A DNA stretch of 11,982 nucleotides from Myxococcales bacterium (GTDB lineage: Bacteria > Myxococcota > Myxococcia > Myxococcales > Anaeromyxobacteraceae): NCBI GenBank assembly GCA_038320275.1, contig JBBQEB010000121.1, forward strand, positions 1-11,982. The letters run 5' to 3'. Below are positions 1 to 11,982 of the stretch, piece by piece. Numbering within the stretch: the stretch's first letter is position 1; the number at the start of each line of letters is the position of its first letter. The position numbers and the translations under genes were made by a program. The notes below the pieces were generated by a model, which ran no database searches, was not told the origin of the DNA, and saw nothing but the letters and a program-made list of their open reading frames with translations.

Positions 1-143
1 CGGCCACGTGAGAGTGGAGAGCGGCGTGACGGCGGCGGGCCCACGGCGACGATCGCGTTGCCGCGCGAGTCCGGCAAGCGGCCGGTCGTCCGCCAAACGA
101 GCCCGCACCGCACGGTGAAACCTGATCCCGGGGCGCCGCCGTC

Positions 144-160
144 ACGGCACGCGCCCTGCT
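144..160 (+). promoter_or_regulatory. Putative sigma54 (-24/-12) promoter upstream of comM
   Basis: ACGGCACGCGCCCTGCT: GG at 146-147 and GC at 158-159 with the exact GG-N10-GC spacing, and a GGCACG core matching TGGCACG-N4-TTGCW. It deviates at the T before GG and at one T of TTGC. No SD precedes the ATG at 175. Confidence 0.5.
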
Positions 161-174
161 CCTGCGGTCGATGC

Positions 175-1692
175 ATGCTCGTCCGCGTCCGATCCTCGGC
201 AGTGCTCGGCGTCAGCGCCGTTGGCATCGACGTCGAGGTCGACGTCACCGACGGCATGCCGAACTTTCACCTGGTCGGGCTCGCCACCAGCGCCGTCCAG
301 GAGGCGAAGGTGCGCGTCCAGGCGGCGGTGCGGAACTGCGGGGTGAAGCTGCCCGAGAAGCGCGTCGTCGTGAACCTCGCCCCGGCCGACCTGCGCAAGG
401 AGGGCACCAGCTTCGACCTACCCATCGCGGTGGCGCTGCTCGCCTCCTGCAAGGAGCTCCCACTCGAGGCGCTGGAAGGGCTGCATTTCACGGGAGAGCT
501 GTCGCTGTCGGGCGAGCTCAAGCCGGTGCGCGGGGTGCTGGCGCAGGCCATCGAGGCGCGGCGCAGCGGCGCGCGCGGAATCGTGGTCCCGGAGCCGAAC
601 GCGCTCGAGGCGGCGGTGGTGGAGGGGCTGCGAGTCCACCCCGCGCGCCATTTCGGCGAGGTGGTGGCCTGGGCACGGGGCACGGTGGCGATGCCCATCC
701 GCCCGCCTCTCCGGTCCGTGCCGTCGATCGACCCCGCGCTCGACCTCGCCGAGGTAGCCGGCCAGGAGCACGCGCGGCGAGCGCTGGAGGTGGCCGCCGC
801 CGGCGCTCACAACCTCCTGCTCTTCGGCCCGCCCGGGAGCGGCAAGACGATGCTCGCCCGGAGACTTCCCGGGATCCTGCCTCCGCTCTCCTTCGAGGAG
901 GCGCTGGAGGCCACAGTGGTCCACAGCGTGGCAGGGCTCACCCGCGACCGGGGACTCCTGGTGGAGCGGCCGTTCCGCTCCCCGCACCACTCCGTCTCCG
1001 ACGCAGGGCTGGTGGGGGGCTCGAGCATGCTCCGGCCCGGCGAGGTCTCGCTGGCGCACCACGGCGTGCTCTTTCTCGACGAGCTGCCCGAGTTTCGCCG
1101 CCACGTCCTCGATGCCCTGCGGCAGCCCGCGGAAGACGGCGAGGTGTGCATCGTCCGCGCCGCGCGCTCGGTGGTCTATCCCGCCCAGTTCATGCTGGTC
1201 GCCGCCATGAACCCGTGCCCGTGTGGCTGGTACGGCGATCCCAGGCGCTCCTGCCGCTGCACGCTGCACGAGCTCGACGTCTACCGTCGGAGGATCTCGG
1301 GCCCGCTCATCGACCGCATCGACCTGCAGGTGGACGTGCCGTCGGTGCCCCCCGCGTCGCTGGGGTGCGGGGGCAAGGGGGAGCCGAGCGAGATCGTGCG
1401 CGAGCGGGTGCTCGCGGCGCGCCTCCGGCAGTCCGAGCGCTCGGCCGAGGTGTCCGGAGCGCGCGTGAACGCGCGGCTCAAGGGCAAGGGGCTCCGCCGC
1501 GCCTGCGCCCTGGACGCGCCGGGGCGCAGCATCCTCGCCCGGGCGGTGGAGAAGCTGGGGCTCTCGGCCCGCGCGCACGACCGGGTGCTGCGCGTCGCGC
1601 GCACCATCGCCGACCTGGAGGGGACACCCTCGATCCTGCCGGTGCACGTCGCCGAGGCAGTGCAGTACCGCGCGCTCGACAGGAGCGCGTGA
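175..1692 (+). CDS. comM: ComM/YifB family Mg-chelatase-like AAA+ ATPase (505 aa)
   Basis: N-terminal Lon-like/ChlI motif [19 protein letters not shown], Walker [32 protein letters not shown] (Walker B), [12 protein letters not shown], and C-terminal [19 protein letters not shown]. Family-like sequence begins at ATG 175 (MLVRVRS), not at TTG 58. Confidence 0.95.
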
Positions 1693-1745
1693 GGGCGCCT
1701 CGAGCGCCCGTCCCACGCCCGCGCCTCCCGCCCGGGCTTCCTGCA

Positions 1746-1751
1746 GAGGAG
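1746..1751 (+). promoter_or_regulatory. Shine-Dalgarno site of recA
   Basis: GAGGAG 5 nt before ATG 1757. Confidence 0.8.
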
Positions 1752-1756
1752 AGACC

Positions 1757-2779
<1,023 letters not shown>

Positions 2780-2783
2780 GGCG

Positions 2784-2937
2784 CCTGCCCCGTTTACACG
2801 GGGGGGGTCCCAGCGAAGCTGGGGAGGGCAGAGCCCTCCAGGCAGGGACAGCGAGCGAAGCGAGCGTGGGCCCCTGCGAGCAGGGGGTGGGGCCCTCGCT
2901 GAGCTTCGCTCGGCGGTGCGGGGCAGCATGCCCCGTT
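2784..2937. repeat. Multi-hairpin palindromic intergenic element (REP/MITE-like) with 9-bp direct repeats
   Basis: Hairpins at 2788-2803, 2809-2823, 2823-2839, 2871-2886 and 2919-2935. Long-range stems at 2784-2789/2841-2846 and 2852-2861/2903-2912. TGCCCCGTT occurs at 2786-2794 and 2929-2937. Confidence 0.75.
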
Positions 2938-5900
2938 CAAAAGAAGAAATAACGGAGAGTGACGTTCGTCACCCAGGAGGTGTTGTTGCGCTGCGCCGGC
3001 GTCTGGATGCCGCCGATGTCGAACGGATGTCCGAAGTGGACGCGCAGCAGCAACGGGCCGAAGAGCATGTTCACACCGAGGACGCCCGTGAGGGTGCGGG
3101 CGTCCCAGGCGCCGAAATCGTTGGGAGCACAGGTCAGGTCGCGCGTGGTGCACCCCGCGCGCGTGTCCACGTGGTTGAACACGCCGCCAAAGTCCATGGC
3201 GGCGACGCCCGCCAGGTGGTCGAAGATGGCCAGCCGGATGAGAGGGTCGAGCGGGAGCTGCAGCTCGAGGTTCGTGACGTAGTAGTTCTGGCCGATGAGG
3301 TAGGCGAGGTCGAGGGGATAGAAGCCGCGCAGGTTGTCGGCGGCGGTGAGCCACCAGTTCCGCGCCCAGAGCTTGCCCTCGTCGTTGGGCGCGAAGCTCG
3401 TCCCGGCGGCGAAGCGGAGCATGAGCTTGGTGCGGCCGGCCACCTGCCAGTACTTCGAGGCGTCGGTGCGGGCGAACCCGTGCACCGCGCTCCGCCCGGG
3501 AAGCCAGCCGCCTCCCACCTCCGCCAGGAAGGCGCCGCCGGAGATGGGGCCGGCGAGCTGGTCGTACCGGACGGTGTCGTACCCGAATCGGAAGGTGGGA
3601 CCGAGCTGAAGGTTCACCCCACCGTTGCGGGCCTGCCAGTCGCCCACGCCCTGGCGCGCCAGCTCGATGCCGCCGCAGAAGATGGGCCGGTCGACGGCGA
3701 AGTCGGTGAGGCAGTACCGCTGCACGCCTCCCACGGCCAGCTCCACCTCGAAGCGCCGGAAGCGGTCGAGCGGAAAGCGCAGGCTGCCCAGCGCGCCGAA
3801 GTCCCGCTGATAGAAGGCGAGCGTGGGGTCGATGCGGTCGAGCTGCTCCTGCACGAAGTGGTAGGCGCCCAGCACCCAGGTGGTGCGCCCGGTGCGGTTC
3901 TCGAACAGCGCGAGCCCCTGCGTGTAGTCGAAGGAGCCGTAGATGGAGAGGTCCAGGTAGAGGACGTGGTCGCGCAGCATGTCCGAGAACAGCACCGCCG
4001 CGCGGCCCGCGATCGCGTTCTGGGCTCCGCCGCCGTAGACGATGCCCGTCTCGGGCCGCCAGTTGCTCCAGGAGAGCGAGTTGTACGAGGGCGTGCTCTC
4101 CGGGAACTCCTCCCGTGGGATGGGGAGAGGCGGCCCGCTCGAGGCCACCACCGGCACAGGCGGCTCGTCGAGCCAGGCCACCCGGGGCACCTCCACCAGC
4201 CGGAACCGCCCGCGGTAGAAGGTGCCCGCCCAGATGCCGCGCGCCTGCGGGGCGGCGGCGGGAGCCCACAGCCCGGTGGTGAAGTCGGTGACCCTGCGGG
4301 TGGCGCCCTCCTTGAGGAGATACAGGTCCGGCTTTCCCGCCGCGTCGCTGGAGAAGAGCACCGAACCGTCGATCTGCGGGCGCGGGTAGCGGTCGTTCGC
4401 GCCGGAGGTGGTGAGGCGCGTCCGCTCCCCGGTCGCCACGTCGATGCGGAAGATGCTGAAGCGCCCGCTGTCGGTGGCATCGGAGGAGCAGTAGATCCCG
4501 TCGCGGCCCCAGGCGATGTCGCGCTCCGCCCACGGGTCGGAGGTGAGCTGCCGCACCTTCCCGCCGGTGGACGGGACCACGAAGATGTCCTTCTGCCCCG
4601 CGTCGGTGATGGCGGCGAAGGCGAGGTGGCTCCCGTCCGACGAGAAGGACGGGTCGGAGATCTCGATGAACCGGCGGCCCGTCGGATGGAGGAGCTCCAC
4701 CCGCCGCCGCGCGCCCAGCTTGAGGATGGGCGGCTTTCCCGGCCTCGGCGGCGTGTAGCGGTAGGGCACGAGATAGAGCGTGTCCCCCGGACCATCCTGG
4801 GCTGCGAAGGCGAGGAGGCCGTTCGCGATGGCCATCACCGAGTGCTCCACCGGGTGGAGCGACTCGACGCCGGGCTGGTTGTCTGCCGCCACCTCGATGG
4901 CACCGCGCGGGTGGCGAGGGTCCATGAGGAAGAGCTTGGCGCGCCCGGCCTCCCGGTCGATGCCGCGGTAGAAGACGAGGTTGCCGTCGGCGGAGACCAC
5001 GAAGGCCTCGATCTCGGTCGAGGCGCCTTCCGGCAGCTCCCGGAGGTTCTGCAGATCCTGCCGCGTCCGCATGTACTCCGGGTAGTAGCGCCGCTTCAGC
5101 CAGGCCCTCCACCGCGCGTCGACCTGCTCGAGCGACTCGTTGAGCACGCGCCGGGTGAGCGCCGCGAAGCTCCGCTCCGACGAGGCGCCGAGGCCGTTGC
5201 CCATGAGGTAGGAGTTCTCGAGGTAGGCCTGGATCTTCTCCTTCCCGTACACGTCGGCGATGAACGTGACGCGCGCCTGGCCCAGCTTATAGGTCGGGAT
5301 GTACCCCCGGTAGCGGTCCTCGGCGAACGGGATGATGTCGTAGTGGCGCTCCTGGTCCGGGTTCCAGACGAGGTCGCGCAGGTACAGGTCCGCCTCGGGG
5401 TCGAGCCCGCCCTTGGCGTAGTACTCGGCGATGCCCTCCACGAACCAGAGCGGCAGGGACTCGATGGGCGAGCTCATCTCGTCCGCGCCGGCGAGGTCGA
5501 TGAGCTTCTGGATGGTGAACTGGTGAACCAGCTCGTGCGTCGACACCTCGCGGAAGAGCTCGTGGTCGCCAAAGTACGGCAGCGACATCTTGAGGTCGCG
5601 CGGCGAGGTCACCCCCAGCACCGACTCGCCGATCTGGAAGACGTTGGTGGTCTGGAACTCCCGCTGCGAGGCGTAGAGGATGTAGGGGATCTGCTTCGTG
5701 GGCGTGTAGTGGAACTGGTCCACGAGGCGCAGGTAGGCGTTGCGGATCACGGGGAGGGCGCGCTCCGCGATGTCGCGCTCCCGGCCGTAGTAGTAGAGCC
5801 GGATGCCGCCCTGGCCTCCCGACGGCGAGGGGACGTCGTAGTGGTGCCAGTCGAACGCGTACCAGGAGACCTGGTTCTGTCCGGGGCGCTCGGGCAGCAC

Positions 5901-6071
5901 GAACGTCTGCGAAAGGTCGTTGCCGCTGGAGAGCCCCCGCTCGCCGCGCCGGGCGTGCAGCCGATCCATCTGGTGCATGGCGTCGCCGATCGACGCTGGC
6001 GACAGGTTGAAGGTCTGCGCCTGCGCGAGGAGCGGAGCGGCGAGGAGGAGGACGGCGGCGCGCCAGTTCAT
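2937..6071 (-). CDS. Omp85-superfamily outer-membrane protein with N-terminal gluzincin-type metallopeptidase and TolB/PD40-like beta-propeller domains
   Basis: Signal peptide MNWRAAVLLLAAPLLAQA, HELVH (5523-5537) followed by WFVEGIAEY (EGIAEY 5421-5438), and PD40-like repeats (DPSFSSDGSHLAF, VRQLTSD, RTRLTT, RRVTD). The C-terminal amphipathic strands carry LRGF (3321-3332), MDFG (DFG 3186-3194) and terminal VTLRYFFF. Alternative start GTG 6080. Confidence 0.85.
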   Translation of the reverse strand: MNWRAAVLLLAAPLLAQAQTFNLSPASIGDAMHQMDRLHARRGERGLSSGNDLSQTFVLPERPGQNQVSWYAFDWHHYDVPSPSGGQGGIRLYYYGRERDIAERALPVIRNAYLRLVDQFHYTPTKQIPYILYASQREFQTTNVFQIGESVLGVTSPRDLKMSLPYFGDHELFREVSTHELVHQFTIQKLIDLAGADEMSSPIESLPLWFVEGIAEYYAKGGLDPEADLYLRDLVWNPDQERHYDIIPFAEDRYRGYIPTYKLGQARVTFIADVYGKEKIQAYLENSYLMGNGLGASSERSFAALTRRVLNESLEQVDARWRAWLKRRYYPEYMRTRQDLQNLRELPEGASTEIEAFVVSADGNLVFYRGIDREAGRAKLFLMDPRHPRGAIEVAADNQPGVESLHPVEHSVMAIANGLLAFAAQDGPGDTLYLVPYRYTPPRPGKPPILKLGARRRVELLHPTGRRFIEISDPSFSSDGSHLAFAAITDAGQKDIFVVPSTGGKVRQLTSDPWAERDIAWGRDGIYCSSDATDSGRFSIFRIDVATGERTRLTTSGANDRYPRPQIDGSVLFSSDAAGKPDLYLLKEGATRRVTDFTTGLWAPAAAPQARGIWAGTFYRGRFRLVEVPRVAWLDEPPVPVVASSGPPLPIPREEFPESTPSYNSLSWSNWRPETGIVYGGGAQNAIAGRAAVLFSDMLRDHVLYLDLSIYGSFDYTQGLALFENRTGRTTWVLGAYHFVQEQLDRIDPTLAFYQRDFGALGSLRFPLDRFRRFEVELAVGGVQRYCLTDFAVDRPIFCGGIELARQGVGDWQARNGGVNLQLGPTFRFGYDTVRYDQLAGPISGGAFLAEVGGGWLPGRSAVHGFARTDASKYWQVAGRTKLMLRFAAGTSFAPNDEGKLWARNWWLTAADNLRGFYPLDLAYLIGQNYYVTNLELQLPLDPLIRLAIFDHLAGVAAMDFGGVFNHVDTRAGCTTRDLTCAPNDFGAWDARTLTGVLGVNMLFGPLLLRVHFGHPFDIGGIQTPAQRNNTSWVTNVTLRYFFF

Positions 6072-6114
6072 GCGGGTCACCCGGGAGGGATCAAGCGAGA
6101 GGGCGCGCCGCGGC

Positions 6115-6145
6115 AGAGCAACGTGCGGGGCCGAGGTCCCGCACG
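6115..6145 (-). terminator. Possible stem-loop terminator downstream of the DUF1285-like gene
   Basis: Perfect 8-bp inverted repeat CGTGCGGG (6122-6129) / CCCGCACG (6138-6145), followed on the minus strand by only a weak TTGCTCT tail. Confidence 0.35.
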
Positions 6146-6170
6146 GCGGGCCAGACCGGGATGAGCGCCC

Positions 6171-6653
6171 TCACCGGCGCTCGACCTGGATCGGATAGGA
6201 CCGGCCGCCGTGCTCGAGGACGAAGCGACCAGGAACCTGCGGGTCTTCCTCCAGCGCGAGGCCGAGGTCGATCTGCGCCGAGCGCGTGAAGCGCGCCCGG
6301 TGCGAGCCCTTCACGATGCAGTGCAGCACGCCCGCGGCATCGACGCTGAGCGTGGACGGGTCGAGCGCCTCCACCGAGCCGTCGGTGAGATGGACGGCGG
6401 GCTCGCGCCCCTCGAGCTCCACGCCGCGCACGCCGTAGGGAGCGTCGAAGACCGCGACGTAGCCGCTCTCCCGGCCGACGCTCACGAGGTAGCGCCCGTC
6501 CTCCGCACGCCGCAGCGACCCCCAGAGCACCTCCAAGGTGCGGCGGTGCGTGATGGGCTCGCCCCCGTGGCACAGGCGGCCCTCGTCGTCGATGGACAGG
6601 CCACTCCGCTGGCGCAGGAGCTCGAGAGCCTGGGCATCGGGCGCGGGGGGCAC
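6171..6653 (-). CDS. DUF1285-like protein (160 aa)
   Basis: LSIDDEGRLCHGGEPITHRRTLEVLWGSLRRAEDGRYLV..E...VAVFDAPY resembles the DUF1285 N-terminal pattern, and ARFTRSAQIDL resembles its C-terminal pattern. GTG start, GC3-rich codons. Confidence 0.75.
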   Translation of the reverse strand: MPPAPDAQALELLRQRSGLSIDDEGRLCHGGEPITHRRTLEVLWGSLRRAEDGRYLVSVGRESGYVAVFDAPYGVRGVELEGREPAVHLTDGSVEALDPSTLSVDAAGVLHCIVKGSHRARFTRSAQIDLGLALEEDPQVPGRFVLEHGGRSYPIQVERR

Positions 6654-6718
6654 GGAAAGGATGTAGCAGGGGTCGCCGCGCGTTGCGGCGGCCCGTCCGT
6701 GACGCTACCTGCCGCTCC

Positions 6719-7168
6719 ATGCAGCCGCCCCTCCCCGAGCCGATCGTCCGGATCCGCTGCACCACCGACGCCGACCGGGCGCGCAGCCGCCAGATCCTCG
6801 AGGCGATGGGGCTCTCGCCGGAAGATGCGCTCACCTGGCTCGCGGTTCGAGACGCCCACCCCGACACGGTGAACGCGGCGCTGGTCGCGGGCGGCGCGGT
6901 GGCGCGCACCGCGGCGCGCGAGAACATCGGCAAGCTCCTCGGCTGGCTCATCGACCGCCAGGGGGATCTCGACGGCAGGTCGCGCAACGTGAAGGCCCTC
7001 GTCGAGCGCGTCCTGGGCGACGCAGGGCTGGCCCAGCGCTACGCACCTCGCCCCGAGCCGGAGCTGCTCGAATCGGCCCGGACGCTGTACCGGCAGCTCA
7101 TGGCCGAGGGCGCACCCTTCATCTCCTGGGAGCGCTTCCTCGAGCTCTTCTGCGTCACCCGCCCCTGA
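6719..7168 (+). CDS. Hypothetical protein (149 aa)
   Basis: ATG at 6719, GC3-rich codons and normal globular composition. It fills the gap between two real genes and its 3' end overlaps the convergent gene by 14 bp. Confidence 0.75.
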   Translation: MQPPLPEPIVRIRCTTDADRARSRQILEAMGLSPEDALTWLAVRDAHPDTVNAALVAGGAVARTAARENIGKLLGWLIDRQGDLDGRSRNVKALVERVLGDAGLAQRYAPRPEPELLESARTLYRQLMAEGAPFISWERFLELFCVTRP

Positions 7169-8384
7169 AGGCGAGGGCGCCCCAGGTGTTCACCGCGACG
7201 CCCGCGAGCCCCAGCGCCCAGAAGGCGCGTCCCATCCGCCGGGCACCCAGCGCGAGCAGGAGGACGAGGTAGGGGGTGTAGTCGAGGCTGAAGCGGTAGC
7301 CGAACTGCACGTAGCCGGTGTTCTGGTAGAGCAGGCCGGGGAGGGCGGTCACCGCCACCGTCAGCCACAGCGGCAGATGGAGGCGCGGCCGGGCGCGCGG
7401 CCAGAGGAGCAGCGCGAGGAGCGGCGTCGTCACGAACAGTGACATGCCGTCGGGATCGTAGACCGGCCGGCCCCCTTCCCAATGCGGGAGCCGGGTGAAC
7501 GCGGCGTGAAGCTGCTTCTCGAGATAGTGGAACGAGAACAGCCCGTGATGCTGGATGTCGGCGTTCACGCGGTTGTTCCAGAAGTGCGCGTGGCCGAAGT
7601 CGGCGGGCGAGCCGAAGCGGGCCCAGTTGGCCGCCGCCGCGAAGGCGAGGAGCGGCGCCGCGCCGGCCGCGAAGAGGGCCACCTTGCGCCAGCGCGCGGG
7701 ATCGCGCCAGGTTCCCCGCTCGCGCGCCCCGGCTTCGAGCGTCCCCTGACCGGCGATCACCTCCGCGGCGAAGAAGAGACCGGTGAAGACGAGCGGCGTG
7801 CGCGTGACGGCGGCGAAGCTCCAGGCCAGCCCAGCCAGGAAGGGGTGGGCGGCGCGATGCGCGGCGAGCAGGTAGAGGCAGGTGGCAGTCACCCCCAGCA
7901 CCTCGGCCGTGAACCAGACCTCGCCCCGCACGGAGCAGGAGAAGGCGATCGTGCCGAAGGCGAAGAGGAGCGCCAGGCCTGCGTTCTCCCCGCGCGTGCG
8001 CGCGATCTCGCCGCTCCGCCGGAGCTCTTCCAGGACGAGGAAGAGGAGGAGCACGTTCAAGGCCGCGAAGGCCACCGTGAACGACACGTCCACGTACTCG
8101 AAGCCGAAGAGCGCGACCCCGGGCAGCATGAGCAGCGCGGGCCCGGGAGGAAACGAGACGTACCAGCGGTCGCCCACGCGCGCCCAGTCGTTGTCGTCGG
8201 GCGGGCGCACCCGGAGGTGGAGCTGCCCGTGGAGCCAGGCATCCGCCTGGTAGACGAAGTGTGGGGCGTGCGACTGGTGGACGAACCGGTTTCCGGAGAA
8301 CGCGGCCAGCACTGCGAAGCTCCCGGCGAGGAGCGCGAGCTCCAGCCGCCGCGCGCGCAGGAACGGGAGGGCGCTCGCGCTCAC
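7155..8384 (-). CDS. Polytopic membrane protein, probable GT-C fold glycosyltransferase-like (409 aa)
   Basis: About 10 hydrophobic segments. After TM1 a large loop (YQADAWLHGQLHL..PDDNDW..WYVSFPPGPALLMLP) carries acidic residues, and FGYRFSLDYTP lies near the C-terminus. The GTG start overlaps the cinA stop (GTGA). Function is inferred. Confidence 0.7.
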   Translation of the reverse strand: MSASALPFLRARRLELALLAGSFAVLAAFSGNRFVHQSHAPHFVYQADAWLHGQLHLRVRPPDDNDWARVGDRWYVSFPPGPALLMLPGVALFGFEYVDVSFTVAFAALNVLLLFLVLEELRRSGEIARTRGENAGLALLFAFGTIAFSCSVRGEVWFTAEVLGVTATCLYLLAAHRAAHPFLAGLAWSFAAVTRTPLVFTGLFFAAEVIAGQGTLEAGARERGTWRDPARWRKVALFAAGAAPLLAFAAAANWARFGSPADFGHAHFWNNRVNADIQHHGLFSFHYLEKQLHAAFTRLPHWEGGRPVYDPDGMSLFVTTPLLALLLWPRARPRLHLPLWLTVAVTALPGLLYQNTGYVQFGYRFSLDYTPYLVLLLALGARRMGRAFWALGLAGVAVNTWGALAFRGG

Positions 8385-9619
8385 CGCGCGAGCGCCAGGC
8401 GGAGCGCGTTCAGCGCGTCATAGGCGGCCGTCTTGCGGACGCGCTCGCGGTCGCCGGGACGCTTCCGCATCCAGGCGGTCGTGCCGGCCGGGCCGGCGAG
8501 GGCGAGGTGCACCGTGCCCACCGGCTTCTCCGGCGTGCCGCCGCCCGGGCCGGCGACGCCGGTGATGCCGAGGCCCCAGGCCGCCGAGGCGCGCCGACGT
8601 GCGCCCTCCGCCATGGCGCGGGCCACCTCCTCGGAGACCGCGCCGCGCGAGGCCAGCAGTTCCTCGGGGACCTCCAGCACGGTCGACTTCATCCCGTTGG
8701 CGTAGGCGACGATCCCCAGGTCGAACACCTGCGAGGCGCCGTCCACTCCGGTGAGAAGCTGGGCCACGAGCCCACCGGTGCAGCTCTCCGCGAGCGCGAC
8801 CCGCTCCCCCCGCGCGCGCAGACGCTCCACCACCAGGCGCGGCAGCTCCTCCTTGCCCTCCGCGAAGATGGCGTCGCCGAAGATGCGCCGCACGTCCTCG
8901 AGGATCGCATCCGCGCGCGCGGATGCGTCCGGCCCCGGCACGCTCCACTTCACGTGGATCTCGGGCCAGTGCGCCCGGTAGCCGAAGCGCACGCCAGCGT
9001 TCTCGGCCGCGTCCATCACCGGGCGCATGGCCTGGTCGGCGTGGGACTCGGGGATCCCGATGAGCTTCACCAGCCGCGCCGCCGGCACCGCTCCGGCGCG
9101 CTCGGCCAGGCGCGGGAGCACCGCCTCGTCGCAGAGCCCCTTGTACTCGAGCGGCACGCCGGGGAGGCACGTGAGCTCGCACCGGCCCAGCACCACCTGG
9201 AAACCCGGCGCGGTACCCCAGCGGTTGGGCAGGACGGTCGCCCCTCGAGGGAAGCGGGCCTGCTTGGCGTTGTTGGGCGTCATGGTGCGCCCGAACTTCT
9301 CGAAGCGCGCCCGGATGGCCGCGAGGGACGCTTCGTGCAGCTCGAGAGGCACGCCGAGCGCCTCGGCCACGCACTCCGCGGTGAGGTCGTCCTCGGTCGG
9401 GCCCAGCCCGCCGCTCATCACCACGAGGTCGGAGCGCCCGGTGGTCTCCCGGAGCGCGGCGACGAGGTCCGCGCGGTCGTCGCTGACCAGGGTCTTCCTC
9501 CTGACCATGATCCCGAGGTCCCACAGGCGGTCCATGAGCCAGACACTGTTGGTGTCGGTCACCTGGCCGGTGAGGAGCTCGTCGCCCGTGGACAGGATCT
9601 CGACGTCGAGCGCTCTCAC
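8381..9619 (-). CDS. cinA: CinA: molybdopterin-binding-like (COG1058) domain fused to NMN deamidase PncC domain (412 aa)
   Basis: GDELLTGQVTDTNS, SGGLGPTEDDLT and LPGVP in the N-terminal domain. AESCTGG, YANGMK, GAVS and GITGVAGPGGG..KPVGTV in the C-terminal domain. Real start is GTG 9619 overlapping the pgpA stop (GTGA) with GGAG upstream; the 850-aa ORF call is over-extended. Confidence 0.95.
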   Translation of the reverse strand: MRALDVEILSTGDELLTGQVTDTNSVWLMDRLWDLGIMVRRKTLVSDDRADLVAALRETTGRSDLVVMSGGLGPTEDDLTAECVAEALGVPLELHEASLAAIRARFEKFGRTMTPNNAKQARFPRGATVLPNRWGTAPGFQVVLGRCELTCLPGVPLEYKGLCDEAVLPRLAERAGAVPAARLVKLIGIPESHADQAMRPVMDAAENAGVRFGYRAHWPEIHVKWSVPGPDASARADAILEDVRRIFGDAIFAEGKEELPRLVVERLRARGERVALAESCTGGLVAQLLTGVDGASQVFDLGIVAYANGMKSTVLEVPEELLASRGAVSEEVARAMAEGARRRASAAWGLGITGVAGPGGGTPEKPVGTVHLALAGPAGTTAWMRKRPGDRERVRKTAAYDALNALRLALAR

Positions 9620-10164
9620 GGGGTGAGCTCCATGCACCACCAGCGCCCGCCCCCGCAGCCCGCCAGGATGCGGAGCGCGAGCCGGAGGAACTCCACCGCC
9701 CCCCATGCCCAGACGCCGGCCGCCACGTCGTCCAGCACCACGCCGAAGGGATTCTTCACCCGGTCGAAGGCGCTCGCCGGCCAGGGCTTCATCACGTCGA
9801 AGAGCCGGAAGAAGAGGAAGCCGGCGATCGCCGTCCCCCACGACCAGGGGAGGAGCGCCATGGTGACGAGGTACCCCGCCACCTCGTCGATGACGATGGG
9901 TGAAGCATCGACCACGCCCCAGTAGCGTCCGGCCGCGCCGGCGGCGAACACCGCGACGGCCACGAAGGCCAGGAGCGTCAGGAGGTAGAGCCCGAGCGGC
10001 AGATCGCGAAGAGCCCAGAAGAGCGGGATGGCACCCAGCGTGCCGAAGGTGCCGGGAGCGATGGGCGCGAAGCCGCAGGGCCCCCAGGCGGCCAGCACCA
10101 CCCACGGTCCGGGCGGCCCGGTGGGCTTTCCCTTCTTCAGGGTGAACCTCGAGGCGAGCGGCAC
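9616..10164 (-). CDS. pgpA: Phosphatidylglycerophosphatase A
   Basis: APGTFGT, IVIDEVAG, FRLFDVMKPWP, GVVLDDVAAG. Starts 3 nt after the pssA stop. Confidence 0.93.
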   Translation of the reverse strand: MPLASRFTLKKGKPTGPPGPWVVLAAWGPCGFAPIAPGTFGTLGAIPLFWALRDLPLGLYLLTLLAFVAVAVFAAGAAGRYWGVVDASPIVIDEVAGYLVTMALLPWSWGTAIAGFLFFRLFDVMKPWPASAFDRVKNPFGVVLDDVAAGVWAWGAVEFLRLALRILAGCGGGRWWCMELTP

Positions 10165-10167
10165 CGC

Positions 10168-11022
10168 CTAGATGTACTCGTCCCCCTCGCGCTTCGCCTC
10201 CAGGTCGGAGTCCTCGGCCTCCAGCGCGGCGTCGGCCTCCAGCTCGGCGCGGACGGCGGGCGGCAGCGAGGCGGTGGCCGGCTCGGAGCGCCCCAGCGAG
10301 AGCAGCCACTCGGCGAGCCCCAGCGCGATGTAGACGCCCATGTACGCGACCATCACGAACGCGGCGCGGGTGGCCATGCCGACCGCCAGCCCCCCCACGC
10401 AGAGGAACGCGAAGACGGTGAGGCTGGTGCGGGAGAAGTGCGCGTCCTTGAACGTGCGGTAGCGGATGGTGGACACCATCAGGAACGAGAGCAGGGCCAC
10501 CACGATGGCGACGGCGAGGCGGGTGGAGGCGTCGGCGAACGAGCCGAAGGCGCGGTAGTGCGCGATGACGAGGGAGACGATGGCCCCGGCGCCGAGCGGG
10601 ATGGGCAGCCCCACGAAGAAGCGCGAGGAGCCCTTGTCGCCGCGGTGCGCGAGCACGTTGAAGCGGGCCAGGCGCAAGGCGCCGCAGGCCGCGAACGCGA
10701 AGGAGAGGAAGAAGCCGAGGAAGCCGAGCGGAGCCAGGGCCCACTTGTAGACGAGCAGGGCGGGAGCCGCGCCGAAGGAGACGACGTCGGCCAGGCTGTC
10801 GAGCTCCACGCCGAAGTCCGACTGCGTCTTCGTCATTCGGGCCACGCGGCCATCGAAGGCGTCGAAGAAGATGGCGAAGAAAATGGAGAGCGCGGCCTGG
10901 TTGAGCTGAGCGGGCGAGGCGTCGCCAGCGCACAGCGTCATCGCGTAGAAGCCGAGGAAGATCGAGCTGCAGGTGAAGAGGTTCGGCAGCACGAACATCG
11001 CCTTGCGAAGGTTGATCTGCAT
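10168..11022 (-). CDS. pssA: CDP-diacylglycerol--serine O-phosphatidyltransferase (type II, 284 aa)
   Basis: LPNLFT, CDP-alcohol phosphotransferase motif DAFDGRVAR..FGVELDSLADVVSFGAAPA, ALRLARFNV, FVGLPIP and LMVSTIRY. ATG 11022 is preceded by GGAGG. Confidence 0.93.
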   Translation of the reverse strand: MQINLRKAMFVLPNLFTCSSIFLGFYAMTLCAGDASPAQLNQAALSIFFAIFFDAFDGRVARMTKTQSDFGVELDSLADVVSFGAAPALLVYKWALAPLGFLGFFLSFAFAACGALRLARFNVLAHRGDKGSSRFFVGLPIPLGAGAIVSLVIAHYRAFGSFADASTRLAVAIVVALLSFLMVSTIRYRTFKDAHFSRTSLTVFAFLCVGGLAVGMATRAAFVMVAYMGVYIALGLAEWLLSLGRSEPATASLPPAVRAELEADAALEAEDSDLEAKREGDEYI

Positions 11023-11062
11023 CCTGTAGGCAACCTCCGCACGGGGCCGGCAGCGCGGCGCG

Positions 11063-11091
11063 AGGCTGTCATGCGCCGAGCCCGTTGTCGA
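11063..11091 (-). promoter_or_regulatory. Putative sigma70-type promoter of the pssA-pgpA-cinA operon
   Basis: Minus strand TCGACA (11091-11086), 17-nt spacer ending TGA (extended -10 TGn), then CAGCCT (11068-11063), about 40 nt upstream of the pssA ATG. Confidence 0.4.
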
Positions 11092-11132
11092 GGGGCCCAA
11101 GGCCCGGCGCGCTCGGCGTGGATCACCACACC

Positions 11133-11244
11133 CTCGACCTTCCACCGCGACGTCGAGCGCGACCGCGACCTCCGACTGCGACGCCCGACCCCGACTCCGA
11201 CCGCGGCCTCGACGTCGACCCCGGACCGCGGCGGCGACCCCGGC
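11133..11244. repeat. Degenerate tandem hexamer array, consensus NNCGAC, about 18 units
   Basis: ctcgac cttccac cgcgac gtcgag cgcgac cgcgac ctccgac tgcgac gcccgac cccgac tccgac cgcggc ctcgac gtcgac cccggac cgcggc ggcgac cccggc. Confidence 0.8.
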
Positions 11245-11269
11245 CCCCGCGCTCCCGGCTCGCGCCCTT

Positions 11270-11982
11270 CTACTTCGAGGCCCGGGGCGCGCACGGCTCC
11301 CGCCCTGCTTCGCCCGCGCCCAGCCGAATGCGAGCGCCGCTCTCGCACTCCACGACGAAGGTGGGATCCACGTGCCACTGGCTCGCGCGCACCTCGGCGA
11401 TGGCGCCACCCGCGGCGGTGATCCCGGGGCCGTGCCCGGAGCACCGGACGCCGTCGAGCTCCGCGCGCGCCCCGTCCAGCAGCGCGATGCAGCCCGACAG
11501 CCCGCCCTCCACCTCGACGCCCCGGAGTCGCAGCCGTGCGCCCGGGCTCGCGGCGGAGGCCCCGCTGGCGCCGCAGCGCAAGAGCTCGCTCGCGACGAGC
11601 TCCACCTCGCCTCCCGTGACCTCCACGCATCCAGAGGTCGCGCCGGCAGCGGCCCCGCCCACCGTCAGGGCCGCCCCCCGAACGCGGCCGCCGCTCACCG
11701 CCAGGCCCATCGGGCCGGGCAAGGCGAGCACGACATCCTCCAGCGTGAGCTCCCCGCCCGCGACGCTGACCGCCGCTTCGCGGGCCGGACCCCTGACCAC
11801 CGAGCGCTGGAGCGACGCCTTCCCGCGCAGGAGGAGCAGGCCCGCGCGTCCGCCGCGCAGCTCGCCGCGGTCGATCTCGACCGTGCCTCCCGACACGCGG
11901 AGCGCCTGGGCGCCGCCGCGGAGAGAGACCTTGCGCGCGCGGAGCGTTCCACCCTCGACCGAGGCTGCGCAGGCCGCGCCCG
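11270..11982 (-). CDS. 3' part of a hypothetical protein with right-handed beta-helix (pectin-lyase-like) repeats; 5' end lies beyond the window
   Basis: The frame stays open from TAG 11270 to the window edge (..AASVEGGTLRARKVSLRGGAQALRVSGGTVEIDRGELRGGRAGLLLLRG..). Recurring ~21-25 aa pattern of the form V-x-GG-x-(V/L)-x-L-x-x-x-x-(L/V)-x-G. Confidence 0.65.
   Translation of the reverse strand, partial: GAACAASVEGGTLRARKVSLRGGAQALRVSGGTVEIDRGELRGGRAGLLLLRGKASLQRSVVRGPAREAAVSVAGGELTLEDVVLALPGPMGLAVSGGRVRGAALTVGGAAAGATSGCVEVTGGEVELVASELLRCGASGASAASPGARLRLRGVEVEGGLSGCIALLDGARAELDGVRCSGHGPGITAAGGAIAEVRASQWHVDPTFVVECESGARIRLGAGEAGREPCAPRASK

Follow-up and report, generated by a model that had tools for sequence, protein, structure and literature searches.

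The recA spacer and its repeat

The stretch of DNA considered here, referred to as the window, comprises 11,982 nucleotides (nt) of the forward strand of contig JBBQEB010000121.1 (positions 1 to 11,982) from a Myxococcales bacterium of the family Anaeromyxobacteraceae (GenBank assembly GCA_038320275.1). In the window, recA and a convergent gene encoding a protein of 1047 amino acids (aa) are separated by a GC-rich, hairpin-forming repeat (Table 1). We report that this repeat is one copy of an undescribed mosaic family that resembles bacterial interspersed mosaic elements (BIMEs) and miniature inverted-repeat transposable elements (MITEs) and is essentially restricted to the Anaeromyxobacteraceae. 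The boundaries of the window copy were read from an alignment of 19 copies with 40-nt flanks and from flank profiles, and an A-rich tail that is common to most copies extends here to about position 2942. An initial annotation, made from the letters of this stretch, had placed the element at 2784–2937. Its right end near 2937 stands, while its start shifts to about 2800, since 2784–2799 is flank that is unique to this copy. Below, other genomes, contigs and loci carry our own labels (G, C and L with a number).

Table 1. Features of the recA spacer and the genes on either side of it (positions in the window; cells are aligned base positions scored for pairing)
Feature	Position	Strand	Basis and remarks
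recA, upstream gene	1757..2779	+	Pfam RecA 450.9 bits plus RecA_C
Unique flank, recA stop to element	2784..2799	+	Conserved in none of the other copies; no motif in the left-flank profile of 34 copies
Repeat copy, full-length (long form)	2800..2937	+	nhmmer profile match 2801-2937, E 2e-32; covariance-model match 2797-2940, 122.5 bits
5' terminal G-run	2800-2807	+	Precedes hairpin 1
Hairpin 1, CCCAGC-GAA-GCTGGG	2809..2823	+	98% of cells paired; 5/6 pairs compensatory (56 distinct copies)
Hairpin 2, GAGGGC-AGA-GCCCTC	2824..2838	+	99.1% paired; 5/6 pairs compensatory
Linker			Between hairpins 2 and 3
Hairpin 3, GCGAGC-GAA-GCGAGC, central, variable in length	2851..2865	+	Tandem G-A mismatches in the window copy
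Hairpin 4 region	2868..2895	+	Inner CCCCTG-CGAG-CAGGGG (2871-2886) within GGGCCCC/GGGGCCC; the pairings are mutually exclusive
Hairpin 5, long stem around GAGC-TTC-GCTC	2894..2918	+	98-99.5% paired; 7/8 pairs compensatory; two G-T pairs in the window copy
Hairpin 6, CGGGGCA-GCA-TGCCCCG, 3' terminal	2919..2935	+	97.2% paired; 6/7 pairs compensatory
Convergent gene, 1047 aa	2937..6080	-	Open reading frame (ORF) list; weak PD40 and Peptidase_MA_2 matches

A dispersed family in the Anaeromyxobacteraceae

The copy-number search of the source genome and the Myxococcota that the initial annotation had proposed revealed a dispersed repeat and not a single-copy sequence. A profile built from 19 copies and applied at a cut-off of E ≤0.01 gave 37 matches in the source genome, a 4.1-Mb assembly of 343 contigs with a completeness of 90.7%; 20 matches are full length, one is internally deleted and 16 are partial. 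Since four copies are truncated by contig ends, the true copy number is probably higher. When 150 candidates per genome were scored with a covariance model, at least 30 matches were obtained in the source genome and at least 27, 28, 21 and 24 in four complete relatives. The copies of the source genome are 72–94% identical to the window copy.

The distribution of the repeat follows the family closely. By blastn it was found in 19 of 24 other Anaeromyxobacteraceae genomes and, weakly, in one of 16 genomes from the other families of the order, and the covariance model matched eight of nine Anaeromyxobacteraceae genomes as against two of 141 from the remaining phylum, both weakly (41–45 bits). A 29-nt pattern from the 5' end located 20 loci, in metagenome-assembled genomes (MAGs) assigned to Anaeromyxobacteraceae or Myxococcales and in Anaeromyxobacter sp. 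PSR-1; one MAG labelled Sandaracinaceae and one labelled delta proteobacterium are among them. The plasmid and phage collections searched held no match to the element. A search of Rfam 15, likewise proposed at the outset, also returned no match: at E up to 10 the best score was 19.1 bits (threshold 51) and all E-values were at least 0.27, and the microRNA and CRISPR-repeat families that surfaced were dismissed as chance-level. In the literature (main texts, searched for REP, that is repetitive extragenic palindrome, REP-associated tyrosine transposase (RAYT), palindromic repeats and MITE together with Anaeromyxobacter or Myxococc-) no description of the element was found. Of three candidate papers searched by passage, PMC5217627 mentions only CRISPR and cytochrome motifs, and PMC3733652 and PMC12306157 make no mention of Anaeromyxobacter.

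Six hairpins in fixed order

The conserved fold, as predicted from the aligned copies, is a string of six local hairpins arranged in fixed order over about 140 bp. When 36 copies from several genera were aligned with MAFFT, the cells in 31 pairs formed standard pairs in 94.9% of cases, compared with a shuffled mean of 85.8%, and 17 of the 31 pairs had compensatory changes (96 cells). None of 500 shuffles reached these values, and controls in which the pairing was slid along the alignment gave 42–60%. In a model-fitted alignment of 56 distinct copies, which leans towards structure, 96.3% of the cells were paired and 25 of the 31 pairs were compensatory, in 196 cells. The covariance-model check suggested in the initial annotation thus uncovered compensatory changes among the copies, and its suspicion that the sequence is far more than a terminator is borne out by a multi-copy, non-coding, non-autonomous element with such changes.

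Covariation is visible even inside a single genome, G024, where the stems of hairpin 1 read CCCAGC/GCTGGG, CCCACC/GGTGGG, CCCCGC/GCGGGG and CCCGGC/GCCGGG. The stem of hairpin 2 measures 6–8 bp in other copies. The sequences of hairpin 3 are unalignable between genera, with tandem G-A mismatches and a GNA loop frequent among them, and the region folds as a single hairpin of about 6–17 bp (-2 to -36 kcal/mol) in 35 of 36 copies. The window copy carries a short version of it, and other copies in the source genome have GCGCGC-GAA-GCGCGC at this place, with both arms changed. Hairpin 4 is the least certain part of the fold: its inner stem is 83% paired with few compensatory changes, and the outer GGGCCCC/GGGGCCC, also 83% paired, is nearly invariant and competes with both the inner stem and the base of hairpin 5. 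The compensatory changes of hairpin 5 include CCCC/GGGG to CTCC/GGAG and extend to its base, and hairpin 6 is closed by A-T, C-G or G-C, depending on the copy.

All stems listed in the initial annotation are present in the window where it had placed them, by direct reading and with 21 pairs of its rod re-checked base by base, and GCGAAGC does occur twice on the + strand (2813–2819 and 2855–2861), with its complement at 2903–2909. The two larger structures built from these stems do not extend to the family. The cloverleaf depends on a CCTGCC arm (2784–2789) and on the 5' arm of a first hairpin (2788–2793) that both lie in the unique flank; in the window copy the flank arms within 2784–2799 happen to pair with the 5' G-run and the linker of the element. 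The long-range rod (2852–2866/2897–2912) is the minimum-energy fold of the window copy only and is not conserved. As a family structure it was rejected, its two outer helices pairing 54.6% and 61.1% of cells in the 36 copies and 336 of 500 shuffles doing as well. The comparison of DNA and RNA folding that had been called for showed both strands to fold far better than shuffled sequences under both parameter sets. For the 161-nt stretch 2780–2940, the + strand as RNA reached -101.2 kcal/mol (z -4.0), and the z-scores were -5.0 for the - strand as RNA and -5.4 and -6.4 for the + and - strands as DNA, against 200 dinucleotide-preserving shuffles for each strand and parameter set.

Asymmetry between the strands

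GNA-type triloops occur on the + strand in hairpins 1, 2, 3 and 6. In hairpin 6, 52 of the 56 distinct copies have the loop GCA; the loop of hairpin 1 is GAA in 26 copies and GCA in 16, and hairpin 2 has GGA, GCA, AGA or GAA. The loops of hairpin 5 are all pyrimidine (TTC, TCC, TCT or TTT), the complement of GNA, and some copies have a hairpin 5 that matches the reverse complement of hairpin 1 exactly. The + strand is also G-rich (GC skew +0.145), and in hairpins 1, 2, 5 and 6 its G-T mismatches outnumber A-C mismatches by 22 to 6 (12 to 0 in hairpin 5 alone). Passages of PMC3201870 and PMC13037366 single out d(GNA) triloops as DNA mini-hairpins of exceptional stability. The element resembles d(GCGAAGC) and d(GNA) mini-hairpins in that its hairpins 1, 2, 3 and 6 carry GAA, GCA, GGA or AGA triloops that are mostly closed by C-G. 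It differs in that the mini-hairpin is a structural motif and not a genetic element, and in the varying closing pair of hairpin 6. These strand-specific features favour the folding of a single DNA strand, and a role as RNA would be compatible with them.

Placement of the copies

The copies are intergenic, lie in both orientations and are scattered over at least 20 contigs of the source genome. Pfam matches of the ORFs flanking 24 of these copies identify ordinary housekeeping genes, among them truD, serine dehydratase, prfA and prmC, an aminoacyl-tRNA synthetase, ornithine carbamoyltransferase, prs and rplY, recO, and imuB and dnaE2, besides ORFs with no Pfam match; no transposase was found among these scanned neighbours. 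For ten copies situated between co-directional genes, our reading of the neighbour maps gave three in sense and seven in antisense orientation. Relative to replication, with origins assumed at dnaA or at coordinate 1, the two orientations were counted at 18:10 in G017, 16:8 in G024 and 13:11 in G059.

No motif was detected in the left flanks of 34 copies. The 3' flank beyond hairpin 6 approximates T-T-C/T-A-A-A: the commonest bases after the hairpin are GTTC, and 36 of 53 copies have A at position +3, the third beyond GTT. In 15 of 38 copies the end of a convergent gene falls between -6 and +40 nt from the 3' end of the element, and in 10 of 38 it falls between -2 and +4 nt. ATG triplets at the 3' end were considered as starts of downstream genes and dismissed, a plausible co-directional ORF start lying within 40 nt in 10 of 38 copies only, and few of these adjacent. 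A scan of 2800–2942 found no sigma-70-like promoter and no U-tract terminator inside the element; hairpin 6 is followed by GTTCAAAA, which is not the U-tract that an intrinsic terminator has after its GC-rich hairpin. No RNA run was listed among the public sequencing runs that contain the stretch; one DNA run contains most of it and the others contain small parts.

A separate observation concerns the stop codons of convergent genes adjacent to the element, which differ between genomes that are 93–98% identical: TAA/TAG at L108/L119/L118, TGA/TAG/TAA at L110/L131/L132 and TAG/TGA at L111/L133. The last amino acids are unchanged at these loci, and several of the genes end in an aromatic residue.

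Movement, amplification and exchange of heads

Three long-form copies of the complete genome G017 are missing at the same loci of G059 and G056, whose flanks are 93–98% identical. At one of these three polymorphic spacers G053 holds an independent, differently placed copy, and in G041 (L122) the convergent genes share their stops in a single CTAG and leave no spacer, where other species have 25–300 nt and a copy. With a cut-off of E ≤0.01, the covariance model found no copy in the recA spacer of ten relatives or in the prfA-prmC spacer of eleven. Recall that the window copy lies in the former; within the genus, recA spacers measure about 13–190 nt or longer (two relatives have an extra insert) and are unalignable, so that they offer no clean empty site. 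From filled and empty loci and from element-free orthologous spacers it follows that the positions of copies are lineage-specific, and as they differ between species and between genomes of 93–98% identity, the element has moved.

Copies have also been rearranged internally. At a fourth locus G059 (L133) and G056 (L134) have internally deleted copies, compared with L111 in G017. In G056 the deletion fuses hairpin 2 to the similar hairpin 6, leaving hairpin 1 and a hybrid of hairpins 2 and 6, which shows recombination between two similar hairpins within one element. In the source genome, the copy on contig C114 has lost a comparable segment between two GCAGGG repeats. Tandem arrays are found on contigs C132 (at least three copies) and C97 of the source genome, in G024 (252333–252814) and in G049 (4436720–4437232).

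The 5' part of the element is exchangeable. At least seven copies of the source genome are without hairpins 1 and 2 and have a different head instead, CTRARCGGCAGAGCGTGAATCG followed by a small hairpin. G049 harbours six near-identical units of 223 bp (L147–L152, for example L148 184–406), each made up of a related head, the core of hairpins 3–6 and a palindromic mini-element of 65 bp. These units are bounded by inverted repeats (CTAAAC...GATTCG) and flanked as C|TA...TA|G, a signature that we take to be the one expected of an IS630-type enzyme, and the unit looks like a recently active IS630-type MITE. A unit with inverted repeats at its ends can accordingly carry the hairpin core. The window form has no such ends: in the alignment of 19 copies with flanks and in the flank profiles, the long form lacks both terminal inverted repeats and a target duplication.

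Candidate mobilising enzymes

The initial annotation had suggested a substrate of HUH, RAYT or IS91-like enzymes, a link that the genomes searched do not support. The source genome, at 90.7% completeness, gave no match to Y1_Tnp (PF01797), Y2_Tnp, the TnpB-type PF07282 or DDE_3, nor to RAYT-like proteins, and no copy of the element lies near the 17 Y1 loci of relatives that were inspected. Weak Y1-like matches were obtained in most relatives, and RAYT-like HUH proteins of 222–288 aa with an HPH motif are present in relatives that bear the element. Y2_Tnp occurs in 2 of 15 Anaeromyxobacteraceae genomes and DDE_3 in 12 of 31, and the presence of neither tracks that of the element.

The short RAYT genes of some relatives are flanked on both sides by several copies, in both orientations, of a REP of the form GGCGGGGG-N5-CCCCCGCC. 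Together, this palindrome and the short Y1 genes look like a classical REP/RAYT system within the Anaeromyxobacteraceae; the source genome has no copy of the palindrome. A census of hairpins around Y1 genes found nothing resembling hairpin 1 or hairpin 6. An IS630-like element of about 1.19 kb was located in G049 (L160 919–2111), with 22-nt inverted repeats (86% complementary) and a DDE_3 ORF of 364 aa. It was rejected as the mover of the 223-bp composite, the inverted repeats of the two matching at only about half of the positions. A hairpin census of the source genome also brought out another perfect triloop hairpin, unrelated to the element, whose CGTAGC stem recurs in five copies with the loop GCT and in five with the loop AGC.

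Interpretation

Very probably, the repeat is a dispersed element that is mobile now or was so recently. On balance, we are inclined to regard 2800–2937 as one copy of a six-hairpin, likely non-autonomous mobile repeat of about 140 bp, with 20–30 copies per genome, that would depend on an enzyme acting in trans and would probably move as a folded single DNA strand. The hairpins would then be the recognition signal of the mobilising enzyme and the + strand would be the active one. Intergenic insertion would place the hairpins in read-through transcripts in either orientation, which is compatible with mobility, and once transcribed they would serve as 3'-end barriers or stabilisers in the manner of REPs and BIMEs in enterobacteria. 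The idea of folding as single-stranded DNA, raised in the initial annotation, agrees with the lack of terminal inverted repeats and target duplication, the hairpins close to both ends, the strand-specific GNA loops and the excess of G-T over A-C mismatches outside hairpin 4, although this agreement does not amount to proof. That the strand is moved by an HUH-like enzyme in particular is a tentative proposal, and we consider it somewhat doubtful.

Several observations weigh against the favoured explanation. No mobilising enzyme was found, in a source genome whose 90.7% completeness and 343 contigs leave its absence unproven. Queries of that genome by tblastn with two RAYT-like proteins, from G017 and G024, gave no match; no copy lies within about 1.5–2.7 kb of the 17 Y1 loci in relatives; and the true RAYT genes (169–178 aa) of G052 (L067), G006 (L068), G044 (L069) and G020 (L071) carry the different REP described above. 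The identity of 72–94% between the window copy and the others in the source genome may indicate that activity there is ancient. The pairs of filled and empty loci lack clean junctions because the spacers diverge fast, even between the empty genomes G059 and G056, which limits the placing of the termini and the target site to a precision of a few bases. With the assumed origins, the orientation bias relative to replication is weak, and transposons that target the lagging strand are usually more biased. When hairpin 4 is counted, the ratio of G-T to A-C mismatches becomes 28:24. Finally, compensatory changes that are shared by a subfamily are counted many times over, and such changes do not tell selection on DNA from selection on RNA.

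The strongest competitor within the realm of mobile DNA is a DDE-type (IS630/Tc1-like) MITE, of which the window form would be a derivative with decayed or replaced inverted repeats, served by a TA-targeting cut-and-paste transposase. The 223-bp units of G049, with their core of hairpins 3–6, fit an insertion into CTAG with duplication of TA, short-form copies in the source genome (as on contigs C248 and C149) begin with a related end sequence, the 3' flank is A/T-rich and DDE_3 transposases were found in 12 of the 31 Anaeromyxobacteraceae genomes searched. Yet in the long form of the window a terminal inverted repeat and a duplicated flank are both missing, and DDE_3 is unmatched both in the source genome and in G017, where long-form copies are polymorphic. 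The sole IS630-like element found in G049 has other inverted repeats, and no pair of MITE ends in that genome stands at the spacing typical of a full insertion sequence. We consider this origin unlikely, and give the same low standing to an IS630-like DDE enzyme that acts on degenerate ends. A classical REP/BIME system mobilised by a RAYT would account for the mosaic of GC-rich extragenic palindromes with its inverted hairpin 5 and its tandem arrays, and RAYT-like HUH proteins do occur in element-bearing relatives. It is nevertheless very improbable, as the source genome has no RAYT, the 17 Y1 loci of relatives have no copy nearby and the relatives' RAYT genes are flanked by GGCGGGGG-N5-CCCCCGCC, which is absent from the source genome. 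According to passages of PMC3733652, most REPs are marked by a GTAG tag, one end of the palindrome having the tetranucleotide GTAG or CGTC; in the present family only 2 of 53 copies have GTAG after hairpin 6.

Two further explanations make movement secondary or dispense with it. The copies could be structured-RNA modules (terminators, mRNA stabilisers or small RNAs) that are kept by selection on the transcript, their spread being a by-product. Strong compensatory variation, G-U mismatches exceeding A-C ones in hairpins 5 and 6 of the + strand, locations at gene 3' ends and between cistrons (prfA-prmC, prs-rplY, after recA) and the 10 of 38 copies that touch a stop codon would all suit such modules. 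Their positions, however, are not conserved between species, three sense copies stand against seven antisense ones among the ten between co-directional genes, the left flanks share no promoter, and neither a sigma-70-like site nor a U-tract after any hairpin was found. GNA triloops, moreover, are typical of stable DNA rather than RNA hairpins, as passages of PMC3201870 have it, and we judge selection on the transcript to be a decidedly unlikely primary cause. Alternatively, an old intergenic sequence might have been multiplied by tandem duplication, recombination and gene conversion, with no transposition at all. Tandem arrays (C132, C97, G024 and G049) would suit this, and the internal deletions between hairpins 2 and 6 show that recombination does act on the element. 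With copies on at least 20 contigs between unrelated housekeeping genes, and with whole elements present or absent at three loci between close relatives, this explanation is scarcely credible.

Relation to known repeats

The family behaves most like BIMEs and MITEs, yet departs from REP/RAYT systems, classical MITEs and Rfam families in the very traits that define them. With the enterobacterial REPs and BIMEs it shares a non-coding, GC-rich, hairpin-forming and extragenic nature, tens of copies, and the lack of terminal inverted repeats and target duplication. Like them it is a mosaic of hairpins that occurs in both orientations, with variable linkers and 5' heads, tandem amplification and a location at gene 3' ends or between cistrons, and the palindromic units in both orientations, variable linkers and tandem arrays that characterise a BIME-like mosaic are all found in it. 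It differs in consisting of six different hairpins in fixed order over about 140 bp instead of pairs of one REP of 20–40 bp, and, from REP/RAYT systems, in having no GTAG or CGTC tag, no RAYT in the source genome and another REP beside the RAYT genes of relatives.

Bacterial MITEs include Correia/NEMIS, ERIC, RUP and IS630-derived MITEs. The element falls in their size class of 100–250 bp and is likewise non-autonomous, strongly folded, intergenic and subject to insertion differences between strains. In contrast to them, the window form is without the terminal inverted repeats and target duplication that are both seen in the G049 composite, and no matching full-length insertion sequence was found. 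The ends of IS200/IS605-family elements and their transposase-less derivatives, the palindrome-associated transposable elements, are moved as single-stranded DNA by Y1 HUH transposases; part of this background is given in passages of PMC6006769. The present element compares with these derivatives in its hairpins near both ends and its lack of inverted repeats and duplication, and also in its one-sided, A-rich flank preference and strand-asymmetric features. It is unlike them in having no Y1 transposase in the source genome, a weak orientation bias under the assumed origins and six hairpins instead of two, the end hairpins lying 1–9 nt from the ends. The family might represent a new kind of mobile DNA, which would have no terminal inverted repeats, target duplication or transposase of a known HUH or DDE family, would use strand-specific GNA-triloop DNA hairpins as recognition signals, and would swap its core between heads, one of them an inverted-repeat head for a cut-and-paste enzyme. 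So far-reaching a reading we hold to be rather improbable.

The repeat has practical consequences as well. It breaks assemblies, as the four source-genome copies at contig ends illustrate, and annotation may take it for a terminator, a small RNA or a short ORF. Its variation between close strains makes it a possible typing marker. For copies within operons and beside recA, prfA-prmC and imuB-dnaE2, six strong hairpins are likely to affect the ends and the stability of transcripts. For the biology of mobile elements, the family combines clear evidence of movement and strong structural constraint without an identifiable mobiliser, a question that can be approached experimentally in cultured Anaeromyxobacter strains, as these have more than 20 copies.

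Flanks of the window copy and minor observations

The TGA stop of the 1047-aa gene (2937–2939, - strand) directly abuts the 3' end of the element. The C-terminus of the encoded protein, YFFF, is also found in orthologues of relatives in which no element adjoins the gene, and one element-free orthologue already has TCAAAAG at the corresponding place, from which it follows that at the recA locus this motif belongs to the target side. On the other side of the element, the unique flank at 2786–2799, TGCCCCGTTTAC, resembles the 3' arm of hairpin 6 and its tail, TGCCCCGTTCAA at 2929–2940. This flank may be what is left of another copy upstream, comparable to the tandem arrangements on contigs C132 and C97. 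The sole terminator-like site in the scan is at 2957–2974 on the - strand, where GTGACG-TT-CGTCAC is followed by a T-rich run; it lies within the 3' coding end of the convergent gene and is kept in orthologues as coding sequence. The source genome (G000) has a second recA paralogue on contig C18 (1844–2303), with 76% DNA identity to positions 2250–2790 of the window, and two recA matches were also obtained in most of the relatives searched.

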